Shown: positions 10,453-64,000 of the stretch, one piece after another
Position numbering within the stretch: position 1 is the first letter of the stretch
Layout: each line of letters begins with the position of its first letter
Source: Naegleria gruberi
Taxonomy: Eukaryota
Reading direction: 5' to 3' (one strand)
NCBI GenBank assembly: GCA_000004985.1
Contig: GG738860.1
DNA length: 64,000 bases
Notes under the pieces: generated by a model
What the model was told of the DNA's origin: nothing
Database searches by the model: none
Seen by the model: only the letters and a program-made list of their open reading frames with translations
Translations under genes and position numbers: made by a program

Positions 10453-10943
10453 NNNNNNNNNNNNNNNNNNNNNNNNNNNNNNNNNNNNNNNNNNNNNNNN
10501 NNNNNNNNNNNNNNNNNNNNNNNNNNNNNNNNNNNNNNNNNNNNNNNNNNNNNNNNNNNNNNNNNNNNNNNNNNNNNNNNNNNNNNNNNNNNNNNNNNNN
10601 NNNNNNNNNNNNNNNNNNNNNNNNNNNNNNNNNNNNNNNNNNNNNNNNNNNNNNNNNNNNNNNNNNNNNNNNNNNNNNNNNNNNNNNNNNNNNNNNNNNN
10701 NNNNNNNNNNNNNNNNNNNNNNNNNNNNNNNNNNNNNNNNNNNNNNNNNNNNNNNNNNNNNNNNNNNNNNNNNNNNNNNNNNNNNNNNNNNNNNNNNNNN
10801 NNNNNNNNNNNNNNNNNNNNNNNNNNNNNNNNNNNNNNNNNNNNNNNNNNNNNNNNNNNNNNNNNNNNNNNNNNNNNNNNNNNNNNNNNNNNNNNNNNNN
10901 NNNNNNNNNNNNNNNNNNNNNNNNNNNNNNNNNNNNNNNNNNN
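10453..10943. other. assembly gap (491 N)
   Basis: Run of n. ORFs that span it are artefacts. Confidence 1.
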
Positions 10944-53327: not shown

Positions 53328-54811
53328 NNNNNNNNNNNNNNNNNNNNNNNNNNNNNNNNNNNNNNNNNNNNNNNNNNNNNNNNNNNNNNNNNNNNNNNNN
53401 NNNNNNNNNNNNNNNNNNNNNNNNNNNNNNNNNNNNNNNNNNNNNNNNNNNNNNNNNNNNNNNNNNNNNNNNNNNNNNNNNNNNNNNNNNNNNNNNNNNN
53501 NNNNNNNNNNNNNNNNNNNNNNNNNNNNNNNNNNNNNNNNNNNNNNNNNNNNNNNNNNNNNNNNNNNNNNNNNNNNNNNNNNNNNNNNNNNNNNNNNNNN
53601 NNNNNNNNNNNNNNNNNNNNNNNNNNNNNNNNNNNNNNNNNNNNNNNNNNNNNNNNNNNNNNNNNNNNNNNNNNNNNNNNNNNNNNNNNNNNNNNNNNNN
53701 NNNNNNNNNNNNNNNNNNNNNNNNNNNNNNNNNNNNNNNNNNNNNNNNNNNNNNNNNNNNNNNNNNNNNNNNNNNNNNNNNNNNNNNNNNNNNNNNNNNN
53801 NNNNNNNNNNNNNNNNNNNNNNNNNNNNNNNNNNNNNNNNNNNNNNNNNNNNNNNNNNNNNNNNNNNNNNNNNNNNNNNNNNNNNNNNNNNNNNNNNNNN
53901 NNNNNNNNNNNNNNNNNNNNNNNNNNNNNNNNNNNNNNNNNNNNNNNNNNNNNNNNNNNNNNNNNNNNNNNNNNNNNNNNNNNNNNNNNNNNNNNNNNNN
54001 NNNNNNNNNNNNNNNNNNNNNNNNNNNNNNNNNNNNNNNNNNNNNNNNNNNNNNNNNNNNNNNNNNNNNNNNNNNNNNNNNNNNNNNNNNNNNNNNNNNN
54101 NNNNNNNNNNNNNNNNNNNNNNNNNNNNNNNNNNNNNNNNNNNNNNNNNNNNNNNNNNNNNNNNNNNNNNNNNNNNNNNNNNNNNNNNNNNNNNNNNNNN
54201 NNNNNNNNNNNNNNNNNNNNNNNNNNNNNNNNNNNNNNNNNNNNNNNNNNNNNNNNNNNNNNNNNNNNNNNNNNNNNNNNNNNNNNNNNNNNNNNNNNNN
54301 NNNNNNNNNNNNNNNNNNNNNNNNNNNNNNNNNNNNNNNNNNNNNNNNNNNNNNNNNNNNNNNNNNNNNNNNNNNNNNNNNNNNNNNNNNNNNNNNNNNN
54401 NNNNNNNNNNNNNNNNNNNNNNNNNNNNNNNNNNNNNNNNNNNNNNNNNNNNNNNNNNNNNNNNNNNNNNNNNNNNNNNNNNNNNNNNNNNNNNNNNNNN
54501 NNNNNNNNNNNNNNNNNNNNNNNNNNNNNNNNNNNNNNNNNNNNNNNNNNNNNNNNNNNNNNNNNNNNNNNNNNNNNNNNNNNNNNNNNNNNNNNNNNNN
54601 NNNNNNNNNNNNNNNNNNNNNNNNNNNNNNNNNNNNNNNNNNNNNNNNNNNNNNNNNNNNNNNNNNNNNNNNNNNNNNNNNNNNNNNNNNNNNNNNNNNN
54701 NNNNNNNNNNNNNNNNNNNNNNNNNNNNNNNNNNNNNNNNNNNNNNNNNNNNNNNNNNNNNNNNNNNNNNNNNNNNNNNNNNNNNNNNNNNNNNNNNNNN
54801 NNNNNNNNNNN
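53328..54811. other. assembly gap (1484 N)
   Basis: Run of n. Confidence 1.
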
Positions 54812-55584
54812 ATTTAATTAACAATATGGAAATTAAATATTTAGGATTAAAAAATGAAATTTTTATTTCAATTTTATCACCAACAATTGTGTGGTATGAT
54901 TACTTTGTTTCAAATTATTGTAAAATTTATCCATTAAAAGATTATAAATTAATTTTATTATTAATTATTAAATTATTTATTGATAATTTAAATGGATTAA
55001 AATTATTACATGAATTAAATATTTCACATATTGATTTTAACATTTTAAATTCTAACATAATATTAAATAATTGTTCTGATTTAATTAGTAAATATTTAAA
55101 AGAAAATAATTTACCAACATTTAATATGGTATTAATTGATTTTAATAGTTCAAAATTAGAAAGTCAATTATTATTTACAAATGAATACATTCCAAAAACA
55201 ACACATTATCCTCCTGATTATAAATTATATTATGATAATATAAAACCAAATATATCATTTACAAAAGCACATGATATTTATTCATTATCTATTGTAATGA
55301 TTCAATATATTAACATTTTGATTAATTGTTATGGGAATAATTGCTTTCAAATGAAATCAAATACTATTAGATATATAAATCAATCACATAGAAACAAAGA
55401 CGAACCATTCAATATTGATTTTAATATTTTAAATTTTAATATTTTAAATAGTTTTGAAAAGGAAATTTTTAATGAATTATTTGAAATGATAAGAGAAATG
55501 AATTTAAACCCTTGGAAAATTATTAATGAAAAAGATTATTGTTTACAACAATTAGAAAAATTACAAAATAATGTATTGAATTAG
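54812..55584 (+). CDS. extremely AT-rich protein-kinase-like C-lobe fragment (possible pseudokinase); 5' end lost in gap
   Basis: It is open from the gap edge to TAG at 55582-55584. LHELNISHIDFNILNSNIIL (HRD-region-like with HID), LIDFNSS (DFG-like DFN), PPDYKLYYDN (APE-like), DIYSLSIVM (DIWSLG-like). Composition is about 85% A+T versus about 65-70% elsewhere. Confidence 0.35.
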
Positions 55585-59532: not shown

Positions 59533-61245
59533 ATGGTACTACATGATGCTTCCCCAACAACAACGAGTAGTGCGGTTGACCAACAAATTAAACAATACAG
59601 GTTTAAAATAGAGGCTGTTTTTGACCACAAGGAGGCGAGAGAAATATTTAGGGAATATATGAAGAAGGATTGTCTCAATGAAGGTGAGTTTACTTTTACC
59701 TTTCGAATAATAATTATTGTGTTATTGTGATGGTTTCGAATTATCACCACCAATCAAAATAATCAATTAATTTCAAACACAACTCTCAATTAAAAATTTG
59801 AATAAGAACCCTTGTTATTTTACGAAAGTGTTGAAAAATACTTGAACACCCGATTAGATAAGAATCGATTAGAATTGGCTGCTGATATCACTGAACATTT
59901 CATCACAGTTAGCCAACATGAATTAAACCTCTCCATGTCTATTCGAAATGATATCCTAACCCGATGGGAACAAATCGAAGAAAGAAACAAGAATGTCATT
60001 GATGATGATTTAATTGCCTGTCCAATTGATTTATTCAGCAGAGCTCAGGATGTAATTTTCATCGAGATGAAACAAGATAATTTTTCAAGATTTGTCGATT
60101 CTGATATTTTCAAAAAGTTTCTAATAAGAGAATTGAAGAAGAATGATCATATTTTGGAATCTTTGGGCACGTGTAAATTCAATTCAAGAACTGGCTCTTT
60201 GGGAAGTTTATCATCTGAGGATTTGATGAATAATTTGACACCAGTTTCATCTTCCATTTCATCTTCACCATTACATGCAATTTCACATTCACAACCAAAT
60301 AATTCTAGTTTTTCTGGGAATGTGAATTTAACTCCAAGAAGTTCTCAAGATAGTGAGAGTGATTCACTCGATGAGAAAATTGCAACTTTCTATGAGAAAC
60401 AAAATGATTCGAATGAAAGTTTACTCTTGCCAATTATTGATGATATGAGTCCATATATAACTCCAAAAGATTATGATTTGGGAATGAAACTTGTAAATTC
60501 ATTGAATGATTCGAATATGTGGAAAACTATTGATGAAAAAGTTGGACTCAAGACACTTGTCAGTAATCCTGTTTTTAGTTTTTCTCCAAGAAAGAGTGAA
60601 AGTGGGAAGATAATTGTCTGCAATTCTGGAATTCTCACTGGTAAACCAAGAGATTGGTTGAATTTGTTATTCTCTGATTCTATCAATAAGATGATTCATG
60701 AAAAGATGAAGAAGAGATTCCAAGTTGACTATATCAAAATTAATCCAAAGAATGGAGCTCACTACCCAAACACAATAGTATACACTGAAGCTCAATTTCC
60801 ATTTCCATTGACTAATAGAGATTTCATCTTTTGTAGAAGTGTAATTCCAGATCTTTACAATGAAACTACTGGAGAATATGACAGATATGTCTTTATTCAA
60901 AAACCAACTCAACATCACGAATATCCAGCCAGAAACTCACCAATCAGAGCACTCCACTACATTTTCTACATTGTTGAAAAGAAGACTCAATCCAGTGTTA
61001 AATATTCAGTATTCGAAACTGGAGATCTCTCCGGCAAAATTCCACCAAAGATTGTTTCAAGCTTTTTCAAGACTATTGCTAATGCCATGCACAAGAAAGT
61101 CATCAAAGCATGTGAAAAGATCTATAACGAAGAAATCGTTTCCAAAGATGCTGATGGCGCCCTATCAACCCTCACTGAAATGCTCAAATATTTGGAACAT
61201 GAAAGAGCTAACAAGTCAAACTCAACAATAGCTGAAAAACATTAA
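59533..61245 (+). CDS. RGS domain + START (Bet v1-like lipid-binding) domain protein, 2 exons (59533-59683, 59807-61245)
   Basis: Exon 1 is ...YRFKIEAVFDHKEAREIFREYMKKDCLNE|GTGAGT, with a 123-nt intron. Exon 2 is EPLLFYESVEKYLNT...IDLFSRAQDVIFIEMKQDNFSRFVDSDIFKKFL (RGS box C-terminal signature). The C-terminal ~200 aa are RDFIFCRSV...IRALHYIFYIVEKKTQSSVKYSVFETGDLSGKIPPKIVSSFFKT (START-like). Confidence 0.65.
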
Positions 61246-61394
61246 TACTTGTGTAAAATATATTCATCATCATCATGGATTTCAATATCAGAATTTTTGA
61301 GAGTTTCTGATATTTTTGTAAATTCAATAAATTTTTGAAAACAGATTTGAAAACTTTACAAAATTTCTTAGCTGAAAAATCAATAATTAAAAAA

Positions 61395-62429
61395 ATGCAA
61401 ACAAAATTAAATGAATTACCGTTAGAATTGATAAGAGAAGTTCAATGTTACTCTAGTCGTGTTGAATTGATATTTTTGTGGAGTTTTACTTGTCGGAATT
61501 GGAGGCGAATGGTTTGTGAATTGATTTGGGAAGATTACAATGAAGTGATTAAGAAATTTTCCAATAACAGATACGAAATGAATTTCAATGATGATTATGA
61601 AAACTTTCTCTATTCGAAAGAAGGAAGAAAGTTTACTAAATATTTAATTAGAAAGCATGTTTACGAAATGGCTTGTCTCCTATCCGAAGAAGAAGAAATG
61701 ATTGCACAACATTTTGATTCAGTTTCGGAACGATGGATTGATGAACAATTGAAATATTTGAAAAATGTTTTTAATCAATTCTCAGATTTGAAATTAGAAA
61801 AACAAAGTTCAATTGAACTATCCAGATCAACACTATTCGACAATGCTCTTTCCTTCATAGGCTCCTTCTTCTTGCCAAATAATTCTTCAAATGATGTGAA
61901 GGATTTCGATTTCCTTTCAAAAATCCTATTGGAAGGAGAAAGATCGAGTGGAAAGTCATCGTTCCTCTATTGTGCAATGAATAATGGTGAAATTATTCAA
62001 AATTCAATGCCTCCAATTGCCTGTTTTGCTCGGAAAATATTAACAATTGGTCAAGAAAGAGTTAAGATTGAAGTGTGGGAAAGTGGTGGAGAAAGATATC
62101 GGCCTCTGATTGCTGCCAATTATCGAAGAGTTGAATTTATTTTGATATTTGTGGATCCTTTCAAATGGAATTCGAAACAGTCCACTGAATTATTGAGCAA
62201 AATCAAGGAAGATATTGAGAAATATTCATCGAAAAAGATTGAGGTTATCTTTATTACAACAAGGAAAGACATTGAACAAGAGAAACGAAACCTTTCTAAT
62301 GAAAAAGCAGATGAATATGCTTTTGATAATTATTTTGGAGCTCTACATTTCAATATTACAAATAATCAAGCTGAGGAACCAAAAAGAATCATTTGGTATT
62401 GCACATTACTCAAGTATTTACTTTCGTAA
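61395..62429 (+). CDS. F-box-like motif + divergent Ras/Rab-like small GTPase domain (catalytic Gln absent)
   Basis: LNELPLELIREVQCYSSRVELIFLWSFTCRNWRRMV is F-box-like. GERSSGKSSFL is G1, VWESGGERYR is G3 (DTAGQE with the Q missing), and ITTRKD is G4 (NKxD variant). Confidence 0.55.
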   Translation: MQTKLNELPLELIREVQCYSSRVELIFLWSFTCRNWRRMVCELIWEDYNEVIKKFSNNRYEMNFNDDYENFLYSKEGRKFTKYLIRKHVYEMACLLSEEEEMIAQHFDSVSERWIDEQLKYLKNVFNQFSDLKLEKQSSIELSRSTLFDNALSFIGSFFLPNNSSNDVKDFDFLSKILLEGERSSGKSSFLYCAMNNGEIIQNSMPPIACFARKILTIGQERVKIEVWESGGERYRPLIAANYRRVEFILIFVDPFKWNSKQSTELLSKIKEDIEKYSSKKIEVIFITTRKDIEQEKRNLSNEKADEYAFDNYFGALHFNITNNQAEEPKRIIWYCTLLKYLLS

Positions 62430-62498: not shown

Positions 62499-63202
62499 TT
62501 AGTTGATAGCAACAACTTCAACATCGAAAATCAAAACACTGTTAGCTGGAATTTTACCCATAGCCTATTGAGTAATAAATCATAAAAATTGTAATTATAA
62601 ATCAAATCAGTAAAATTATAAAATCAATAACTAACCCTTGATCCATATCCCATTTCACTAGGAATAACCAACTTTCTCTTTTCACCAACACAAGCTCCTC
62701 TGTATTAATAATGTAATTATACGACATTACATGAATTGTTAATCCACACTTTGTTTAACGTCAACTTACTGAAGACCAGCATCCCATCCTTTAATAACAC
62801 TACCTTGTCCAATCTGATTATTATTAAAATAATTAATGATGTCAAGTGGTATCCAATTCATTCCGATAACACGTGTTAAAATATCAAATCATCAATTATA
62901 TTTTGTTTGATCGGAATGTATTATTAAAATATTGATCAATAAATAGATAATATAACACTCATACATACAGTGAAGGAGAATGGTTGATTTCTGCTATAAC
63001 TAGAATCAAATTCAGTACCATCAGTCAAAGTACCTCTGTAGTGAACATCAATTTTATCACCATCCTTGATCTTTCTATCACAATCATTTGGTCTATACTT
63101 GACACCAACTTGCAATCTCTTCAAATCTTCATACTTGGCAAAGGAGGATGAAACACAGAAGGTAACAACCAACAACAAGGCAACAACAAGAGTAAATCTC
63201 AT
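62499..63202 (-). CDS. ER-type FKBP (FKBP13/FKBP2-like) with signal peptide, 4 exons (63202-62969, 62813-62770, 62699-62636, 62564-62499)
   Basis: Spliced product is [78 protein letters not shown] / [15 protein letters not shown] / [22 protein letters not shown] / [21 protein letters not shown]. It is near-colinear with human FKBP2. Introns begin GTATGT, GTAAGT and GTTAGT, all with AG acceptors. Confidence 0.8.
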
Positions 63203-63299: not shown

Positions 63300-64000
63300 T
63301 TATTCTACATCATCATCATCATCTAGCATGGTATGAGTAATTTGTTCCTTAATTATGTACCTTTCGATTGATTCCCTTACTTGGGTTTGATAGGTATCGA
63401 GATTATCAAAGTAAATTCTTGGAACTGTACAAATTTCAATATAGTAAATCATTAAATAATTAACTAATACTTACTCAAATCACCAAATCCATTGACTTCA
63501 ACAATAAAGTGCTCTTGGAAATTCTCAGAAAACATCAAATCAACACCCAAACATAATGAGTTTGGAAAGCATTCATTAGCAATGCTCTCGCAAGTAACTT
63601 TCACCTTATCCCACGACCCAGGAGCCTTATATTCAAGTAACCTTAAAAAGTCATCACATTCTCCTCTCTTATTTCCTAAATGTAAATTGGTCATTGGATT
63701 TCTGGAAGTTCTTACAACGAAATTCATAATTTTTCCGCCTACAACTACAATTCTCAGATCGAAATTACCACGACCCATATAATCGGCTTTTTCAACCCAC
63801 TCCTCAACAATAGCTCCCTCAGCCAATACAAAATCTATTACTTGCTTAATATCCTCATTCTTTGTGTATCGTCTTATTCTCAATGAATTGTAAACTTTAA
63901 AGTATTGAGGGAAGTTTCTATCTCTAACTAGTTCAGAAGAGGTGGTTGCCAACTCTTTGAATACTGTCTCGGTAGATCCTATAATCCTCTGCTCAACAAA
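63300..64000 (-). CDS. RimK-type ATP-grasp ligase (RIMKL / alpha-L-glutamate ligase-like), 5' end beyond window; last intron 63425-63474
   Basis: FDLRIVVVGGKIMNFVVRTSRNPMTNLHLGNKRGE and LCLGVDLMFSENFQEHFIVEVNGFGDL align with RimK DIRVFVVGGKVVAAMRRQ...FRSNLHRGG and LDVAGVDIL....PLVMEVNSSPGL. The final exon IPRIYFDNLDTYQTQVRESIERYIIKEQITHTMLDDDDDVE* follows a 50-nt GTAAGT..AG intron. The frame stays open to position 64000. Confidence 0.6.

Follow-up and report, generated by a model that had tools for sequence, protein, structure and literature searches.

A fast-evolving Naegleria gruberi gene that joins a predicted divergent F-box to a Rab-derived G domain without the catalytic glutamine

What might a cell do with a protein that carries an F-box-like motif at its N-terminus and, behind it, a Rab-like GTPase domain from which the catalytic glutamine is missing? 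The question is raised by an open reading frame near the end of a 64,000-nucleotide stretch of Naegleria gruberi DNA (assembly GCA_000004985.1, contig GG738860.1; the whole stretch is called the window below), for which a preliminary description made from the sequence had proposed this combination of features. That description placed the reading frame at 61395-62429, which is exactly an ATG-to-stop frame, and the G1, G3 and G4 motifs that it named are all found with the sequences it gave. The gene is N. gruberi NAEGRDRAFT_65991, whose public product (P0001 = EFC46014.1 / XP_002678758.1 / D2VAV3) is annotated as a 'predicted protein'. It is a fast-evolving, species-specific paralogue of a Naegleria-restricted family, and the architecture of that family consists of an N-terminal F-box, a family-specific helical linker of ~120 amino acids and a Rab-derived G domain that has no lipid anchor. 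The coordinates of these features in the window copy are collected in Table 1.

Table 1. Coordinates of the gene and of the features of its product within the window
Feature	Residues	Position	Strand	Description and basis
Complete coding sequence		61395..62429	+	344 codons plus TAA; open reading frame listing, in-frame ATG/stop scan
Internal Met92, start of the public GenBank/RefSeq model	92	61668..61670	+	N-terminus of P0001; list of in-frame ATGs
Predicted divergent F-box	6-46	61410..61532	+	LPLELIREVQCYSSRVELIFLWSFTCRNWRRMV; LPxEL..(V)..ELIF..xCRxWRxM; three modelled helices
Family-specific helical linker	47-170	61533..61904	+	Family alignments; no Pfam family match
Rab-like G domain	171-344	61905..62426	+	
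G1 / P-loop GERSSGKS	181-188	61935..61958	+	Fits GxxxxGK[ST]; intact; best-conserved G-domain block in the family
Switch I / G2 MPPIACFA		62007..62030	+	Family T-I-G-x-D-F; Thr to Pro, Gly to Ala, one residue fewer
G3 / switch II WESGGERY	228-235	62076..62099	+	HMMER alignments, family motif table
G4 TRKD	289-292	62259..62270	+	Family TKxD; canonical GTPases NKxD
G5-equivalent FNITNN		62349..62366	+	Family (V/L)EITNT instead of ETSAK; ITN for SAK
Conserved C-terminal helix WYCTLLKYLLS		62394..62426	+	In place of the Rab hypervariable tail; highly conserved in the family

The first in-frame ATG lies at 61395, and the closest in-frame stop upstream of it is at 61308. No stop interrupts the 344-codon frame, whereas every one of the five alternative frames over the same stretch contains 13-35; the N-terminal 91 codons by themselves are likewise free of stops, where the remaining two forward frames have 9 and 12. 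Residues 92-344 of the reading frame are 100% identical to P0001, and the public GenBank/RefSeq/UniProt model (XP_002678758.1 / D2VAV3) is 253 amino acids long and begins MACLLSEEE. Because this public model starts at the internal Met92, it is without the F-box and half of the linker. The ATG at 61395 agrees with the starts of the paralogues in the family alignment. A TTG start at 61335, given in the open reading frame listing, was dismissed, since the gene is eukaryotic and the ATG at 61395 fits the paralogue starts. A tblastn search with the protein found no second copy within the window, and the exact 344-residue product is not encoded in any other assembly searched.

The GTPase claim of the preliminary description is well supported by profile and structure searches. 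The Pfam Ras model PF00071 matches residues 176-312 with an E-value of 2.5e-13 and a score of 50.3 bits, above its cut-off of 21.6, and the Roc and Arf models score slightly under their cut-offs. The best sequence matches among solved structures are all Rabs, namely Rab30, a fungal Rab11-like protein, Rab3B/C, Rab8A, Rab11 and Rab1. For structure prediction, an AlphaFold2 model from the single sequence was discarded (predicted local distance difference test score, pLDDT, of 36), and a model made with a 14-sequence family alignment was used (pLDDT 74.2, predicted template modelling score 0.78), with residues 173-343 well modelled. A Foldseek search with this model returned Rab8, Rab3, Rab4 and Rab1 at E-values of ~1e-10, with template modelling scores of 0.75-0.83 relative to the target. 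Thus, the domain has a Rab-type fold with Rabs as its nearest relatives, and a Rossmann-like fold of non-GTPase type, which the preliminary description had named as the outcome that would count against it, is not what AlphaFold2 and Foldseek give.

The window copy nevertheless falls short of an intact G1-G5 set with the Gln of DTAGQE, as only G1 is intact. At G3 the Asp is replaced by Glu (ExxG), the motif has one residue fewer than WDTAGQERF, and the Gln is missing. HMMER alignments to Rab30, the Rab11-like protein and Rab3B place a one-residue gap at the Gln of WDTAGQERF and pair the E with the Asp of DxxG; the MAFFT family alignment places the gap one or two positions earlier, and the Gln is absent under either placement. 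The missing glutamine and the Asp-to-Glu change, both of which had been noted beforehand, are therefore borne out by the two kinds of alignment. In the segments equivalent to the Rab-specific RabF motifs, the family consensus remains recognisable with TIGVDF, KLQLW, RFRSIT, YYRGAS and LLFDLT, against the canonical IGVDF, KLQIW, RFRSIT, YYRGA and LVYDIT, and the window copy has IACFA, KIEVW, RYRPLI, NYRRV and LIFVDP. Three further departures, not part of the preliminary description, are the replacement of the switch-I Thr by Pro, the ITN at G5 and the lack of a prenylatable Cys. No CC, CXC or CaaX is present at the C-terminus (...IWYCTLLKYLLS), and the same holds for every clade member examined.

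With neither the Gln nor the G2 Thr, the window copy lacks the residues for hydrolysis, which is the mark of a pseudoGTPase. Given the absence of a prenylation site and the defects at G2 and G3, we refer to the domain as Rab-like and not as a Rab, and the loss of the switch-I Thr together with ExxG and TRKD puts this copy nearer the pseudoGTPase end of its family. It had been suggested that such a protein might be locked in the GTP state, which does not follow from the loss of Gln alone: TBC RabGAPs (GAP, GTPase-activating protein) reportedly supply the Gln in trans, a result ascribed to Pan et al. in 2006. Since the G2 Thr is lost and DxxG has become ExxG, nucleotide binding may just as well be weak, Mg-independent or absent.

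Relatives of the protein were found by an index-free phmmer search of 1.8 billion representatives. The window protein is collinear with at least 17 full-length relatives, and the collinearity with the clade runs end to end from the first Met to the last residue, through the F-box, the linker, the G domain and the helix WYxxLLKYLL. Collinear homologues include P0002 (379 amino acids, E=3e-58), P0003 (407 amino acids, E=1e-31), P0004 (353 amino acids, E=4.2e-26), P0005 (360 amino acids, E=2.2e-24), P0017 (379 amino acids, E=2.5e-15), P0022 (373 amino acids, E=2.1e-11) and P0128 (373 amino acids, E=5.4e-07), with full-length matches spanning residues 5-344 of the query; P0008, P0018, P0021 and P0070 match over part of the query only. 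When the window protein is scored against a full-length family hidden Markov model (HMM) built without it, it obtains 268.7 bits. The named relatives are paralogues from N. gruberi and proteins of N. fowleri and N. lovaniensis, some of which are called 'F-box domain-containing protein' in UniProt. Environmental metagenome assemblies (JGI/ENA contigs of 2-10 kb) are the only source of the full-length members P0005, P0008, P0017 and P0019, so the clade reaches unsequenced Naegleria-like heteroloboseans.

A motif survey of a 19-sequence family alignment containing 17 G domains revealed that the catalytic Gln after the glycine of DxxG is present in none of them (0/17). The loss that the preliminary description had noted in the one gene is thus a character of the whole clade. 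The commonest G3 in the family is WDQCGPERF, with Pro at the Gln position. Switch II is wholly degenerate in P0004, P0017, P0022, P0128 and P0070, and the P-loop is degenerate in P0128 and XP_002680400; in P0128, XP_002680400 and P0070, where the P-loop or DxxG has been lost outright, the F-box and linker are kept. G4 is TKxD in most members and G5 is EITNT. The TKxD form of G4 is that of Rac1 and is compatible with guanine binding. Given that both the Gln and the lipid anchor have been lost clade-wide and that G4 is of the Rac-like TKxD type, its members are better regarded as atypical or pseudo-GTPases than as Rabs.

Conservation within the family is distributed unevenly, with G1, G4 and G5 mostly kept and switches I and II variable or degenerate in several members. 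The column conservation is 2.41 for the P-loop, 2.08 for the G4 strand and 2.07 for the C-terminal helix, compared with 0.57 for switch I and 1.04 for switch II. The most conserved blocks are F-box helix 3, the P-loop, the G4 strand and the C-terminal helix; switch I is the least conserved and switch II is modestly so. RabF motifs of the switch and interswitch regions are said, after Pereira-Leal and Seabra in 2000, to be the hallmark of the Rab family. The pattern seen here is the reverse of that in ordinary Rabs. Other F-box-Rab-like clades of N. gruberi in a published gene table (Table S8 of Herman et al. 2021, PMC8296547) have mixed G3 motifs, among them WDSGGNERF, WDTSGQERF and WDASGKPTF, so that the catalytic Gln has been lost repeatedly or variably across F-box-GTPase fusions.

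Turning to the N-terminus, residues 6-46 by themselves do not reach the thresholds of the Pfam F-box models: PF00646 gives 11.3 bits (E=0.35, cut-off 20.5) and the F-box-like PF12937 gives 10.7 bits (E=0.47, cut-off 24.3). The family as a whole gives a different answer. The homologous N-terminal segment passes the PF00646 gathering score in 9 of 10 full-length paralogues tested, with 20.7-30.7 bits. A family N-terminal profile of 55 columns has 29 matches in the PDB at E<1, and 28 of these 29 are F-box proteins, the best being FBXL17 (2.5e-7), with FBH1, FBXW7, SKP2, FBXO42, FBXL5, FBXO44, Dia2 and TIR1 among the others. When the window sequence is left out of the family HMM, residues 1-60 of the window protein still reach 48.4 bits, compared with 6.6 bits for the best of 1000 shuffles. 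The signature can also be read in the sequence itself as LPLELIREV..VELIF..TCRNWRRM, with the LP, the E, a hydrophobic helix 1, the EL and xCRxW present, and AlphaFold2 models helices at residues 10-17, 22-27 and 34-55 with a pLDDT of ~72-75. Searches of the PDB with the full-length model returned only GTPases among the matches listed and no structural match to an F-box; the evidence for the F-box thus consists of sequence profiles and predicted helices. On this evidence we take the N-terminal motif to be a genuine but degraded F-box, assigned through family-level homology. The earlier F-box claim therefore does not stand on the Pfam profiles of the single copy, and it does stand at the level of the family.

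The F-box is connected to the G domain by a linker in which GRKFxKYLxRKxVYE, W(I/V)DxEL..LK.xF.xFxD and LFxxxLSFxGSFF are conserved and which ends in a short spacer rich in S and N. Residues 61-170 score 65.2 bits against the corresponding leave-one-out family HMM, and AlphaFold2 models helices at residues 67-72, 75-103, 109-126 and 149-159.

The closest relatives of the window copy are all from N. gruberi: XP_002670359 (44% identity), XP_002677004/P0002 (41%) and XP_002671737 (37%). Tajima relative-rate tests with N. fowleri P0003 or metagenomic P0005 as outgroup give 49-54 unique changes in the window copy versus 12-22 in its sisters, with p-values of 2e-4 to 2e-7, and the excess is concentrated in the G domain (35 versus 11 changes). 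The difference is not significant when the more distant P0018 serves as outgroup. At the 60 most conserved columns of the family the window copy matches the majority residue in 44, and the 16 mismatches are mostly conservative (V/I, T/V, I/L, S/T, E/D, Y/F, R/K). Given these matches, the conservative nature of the mismatches and the intact reading frame, we read the window copy as an accelerated but still constrained paralogue.

The preliminary description held that a GTPase locked in the GTP state, or one acting as a regulated adaptor on an SCF ligase, would be unusual; the literature contradicts this for the present fusion. The Ras superfamily of N. gruberi was annotated anew by Herman et al. 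2021 (BMC Biol 19:142, PMC8296547). According to their Supplementary Material 4, Rab or Rab-like loci number nearly 90 in N. gruberi, and the excess over N. fowleri is made up of three divergent Rab-like clades that have no close relatives beyond Naegleria (PMC8296547). These clades are described there as having a conserved N-terminal extension, recognisable as an F-box in some members, and as subject to birth-and-death evolution, and the F-box-GTPase fusions in Naegleria number in the dozens (PMC8296547). Table S8 of the same work contains XP_002678758.1*, the asterisk marking a manually corrected model, with a sequence identical to the 344-residue reading frame; its row reads 'Rab', with nothing entered under pseudogene, additional domain or orthologues outside Heterolobosea (PMC8296547). 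In the part of Table S8 available to us the accession occurs once, within the N. gruberi gene list, and the corrected 344-residue sequence is carried only by this supplement (PMC8296547). The gene and its architecture were thus already described in 2021, and the present finding is a rediscovery. The window gene is a member of a clade of Herman et al. in which its F-box cell is blank, the assignment being made here by homology, and the accessible part of the supplement is silent on the family-wide absence of Gln (WDQCGPERF), on the TKxD form of G4 and on the decay of the G motifs.

A precedent for a GTPase that serves as a cullin adaptor is also known from animals, where Rab40a/b/c combine a Rab-type G domain with a cullin-adaptor motif and the GTPase is the substrate receptor of a Cullin5 RING ligase, CRL5 (PMC8129794, PMC10509765). 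Rab40-CRL5 is the best functional analogy that we can offer for the window protein, and it is no more than an analogue. The SOCS box of Rab40 is C-terminal and acts through ElonginB/C and Cul5, whereas the window protein has a predicted N-terminal F-box of the kind that acts through Skp1 and Cul1; Rab40 also retains a prenylation site and a canonical DTxGQ. No SOCS box was matched in the window protein at E<=10, and the chain ends directly after the G domain. The Rab40 and Naegleria fusions arose independently. RhoBTB proteins, which have Rho and BTB domains and are Cul3 adaptors, differ from the window protein both in GTPase subfamily, which is Rab-derived here, and in the type of cullin adaptor, which is an F-box here. 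Along with Rnd, RhoH and the pG domains of p190RhoGAP, they exemplify Ras-superfamily domains without catalytic residues that serve as binding modules. Such atypical and pseudo-GTPases have been reviewed (PMC13236570, PMC5593906), and RhoBTB and BTB-Arf fusions are noted in Naegleria by Herman et al. (PMC8296547). Another discoban protist protein, TbFRP (FYVE-F-box-GTPase, Euglenozoa; Adung'a and Field 2013, PMC3593210), when set beside the window protein by its published description, likewise has an F-box N-terminal to a Rab-related G domain. TbFRP differs in having an N-terminal FYVE domain that binds PI3P (phosphatidylinositol 3-phosphate), whereas the window protein has no FYVE match and just 5 residues ahead of its F-box. 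The F-box of TbFRP is suspected to confer turnover, and its authors found no orthologue in N. gruberi (PMC3593210).

How, then, might the protein act? Judging from its sequence, we put about even weight on its being a substrate receptor or adaptor of an SCF (Skp1-Cul1-F-box) ubiquitin ligase, with an atypical G domain, non-hydrolysing or nucleotide-independent, as its recognition module. F-box proteins bind Skp1 through the F-box and offer a C-terminal domain to substrates. The F-box would accordingly dock the window protein on Skp1 and hence on the Cul1-Rbx1 ligase, and the Rab-like domain would be the module that recognises a substrate or partner, because it occupies the place that WD40 repeats, leucine-rich repeats (LRR) and other substrate-binding domains hold in ordinary F-box proteins. 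Since the family keeps the P-loop, TKxD and the G5-like motif but never the catalytic Gln, the expectation is that its G domain would bind guanine nucleotide and, by itself, hydrolyse it slowly or not at all. The domain may then be a constitutively 'on' binding module, or one that is switched only by nucleotide exchange or GAP action, and it would not be a timer. For the window copy itself the dependence on nucleotide may be weak or lost. Herman et al. propose 'GTPase-dependent ubiquitination' for such proteins (PMC8296547).

Several points weigh against this role as an SCF receptor. The Pfam F-box score of the window copy lies below threshold and is the weakest in the family; the low score is due to Q17 and S20 in the core of helix 1, which are polar here and hydrophobic in the paralogues, and to a Thr that replaces the nearly invariant Val preceding C-(K/R)-x-W. 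The AlphaFold2 model is of low confidence at linker residues 133-168 and does not fix the geometry of the F-box relative to the G domain. The accelerated rate of change also fits relaxed constraint. Moreover, Skp1 and Cul1 are assumed for N. gruberi on the basis that the SCF is, to our knowledge, universal in eukaryotes. A literature search on Naegleria Skp1 and on further descriptions of F-box plus Rab-like proteins gave nothing usable.

The same F-box and G-domain evidence could also be read in another way, in which the F-box is a turnover handle that keeps a soluble Rab-like signalling or scaffold protein low and dynamic through SCF autoubiquitination. F-box proteins are often unstable through autoubiquitination, and for TbFRP the authors connect the F-box with fast proteolysis and a dynamic protein population (PMC3593210). 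We consider this unlikely, if worth keeping in view, in that it leaves unexplained the retention of the F-box and long linker in paralogues with decayed G motifs (P0004, P0017, P0022, P0128 and P0070); if the F-box were only a degron, loss of the GTPase motifs would be expected to end in loss of the gene. Turnover and a role as SCF receptor are not mutually exclusive, and both can hold. A decaying or functionless young paralogue, thrown up by birth-and-death dynamics and with its odd G2, G3, G4 and weak F-box as damage, strikes us as rather improbable. It would fit the significant acceleration relative to the sisters (p 2e-4 to 2e-7, with the excess in the G domain), the lowest F-box score in the family and the failure to find an exactly matching product in other assemblies. 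Herman et al. describe these clades as containing pseudogenes and as evolving by birth and death, and their Table S8, as far as available, has no N. fowleri orthologue on record, the accession standing only in the N. gruberi list (PMC8296547). What speaks against decay is that neither a stop nor a frameshift breaks the 344 codons in a genome of 32% GC (guanine plus cytosine), where the other frames have 13-35 stops, that the protein is collinear with its family from the first Met to the last residue, that 44 of 60 conserved columns match and conservative replacements (D>E, K>R, T>S, V>T, I>V) make up most of the changes at such columns, and that Herman et al. did not mark this gene as a pseudogene.

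The Rab ancestry of the G domain, together with the presence of an F-box, would also suit a non-SCF Skp1-F-box complex in membrane traffic, where the Rab-like domain mimics or competes with genuine Rabs. Yeast Rcy1-Skp1 works with Ypt31/32 and Ypt6 without Cul1 and is a model for such a complex. The protein has no lipid anchor and no membrane-targeting domain, however, and the switch regions that Rab effectors read are its least conserved parts, so that this explanation seems to us a poor prospect. Poorer still, and hardly credible, is the view that the N-terminal motif is a chance resemblance and the protein a Rab-like GTPase with an unrelated helical extension. The sub-threshold Pfam scores of the window copy (E=0.35 and 0.47) and the blank 'additional domain' cell of Herman et al. 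would agree with it; the leave-one-out score of 48.4 bits against a shuffle maximum of 6.6, the 9 of 10 paralogue N-termini that pass Pfam, the 28 of 29 PDB matches to F-box proteins and the presence of all F-box signature positions do not, and as far as these profile data go it is essentially refuted. A more speculative use of the SCF link, to which we give little credence, is that the Gln-less domain is a Rab mimic that serves as bait, its fast-diversifying switch surfaces capturing Rab-binding proteins for the ubiquitin system. The prey may be endogenous Rab effectors or regulators, or effectors with which intracellular bacteria that prey on amoebae, such as Legionella, target Rabs, and the protein may then be an immune or homeostatic device of the 'integrated decoy' type. 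Birth-and-death dynamics, restriction to Naegleria and the conserved nucleotide-binding blocks versus variable switches are compatible with a bait and are no test of it. The same applies to the remark of Herman et al. that the role of these genes probably lies where organism and environment meet (PMC8296547).

The surroundings of the gene hold several other coding regions. Upstream, at 59812-61245 on the same (+) strand, lies a gene whose product has an RGS domain (E=2.9e-11) and, behind it, a START-like lipid-binding domain (22.8 bits, cut-off 22); its stop lies 150 bp before the ATG at 61395, and its listed reading frame begins at a TTG. Downstream, at ~62501-63202 on the (-) strand, lies a gene for an FKBP-type prolyl isomerase with introns and a signal-peptide-like N-terminus (PF00254 E=3.5e-11 for the first exon), which stands tail to tail with the F-box-Rab-like gene, its last exon ending ~70 bp from the stop codon of the latter. 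At 63464-63952 (-) there is a reading frame with a RimK-like ATP-grasp match (PF08443, 22.1 bits, cut-off 21), probably a single exon of a larger gene that may run past the end of the window. Farther away, the window contains runs of N, that is, assembly gaps, at 1395-1444, 10453-10943 and 53328-54811. The very low GC content at 10-12 kb and 52-56 kb is due to such runs, and these dips were therefore rejected as biological features. Directly after the last gap, at 54826-55584 (+), lies a 252-residue reading frame of very low GC content with a weak, sub-threshold protein-kinase match (PF00069 E=0.0067, 16.3 bits versus 31.7) and degenerate motifs of the HxD, DFx and DIYSLS type, which may represent a pseudokinase or else part of a gene cut by the gap.

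As a divergent, species-specific copy in a published catalogue, the gene by itself adds little to what is known of F-box-GTPase fusions. What is added here is the F-box assignment for this copy and the analysis of the G motifs of its clade. If the proposed role as an SCF receptor is true, F-box-GTPase fusions such as those of Naegleria would couple nucleotide state, or GTPase-like recognition, directly to SCF ubiquitination.

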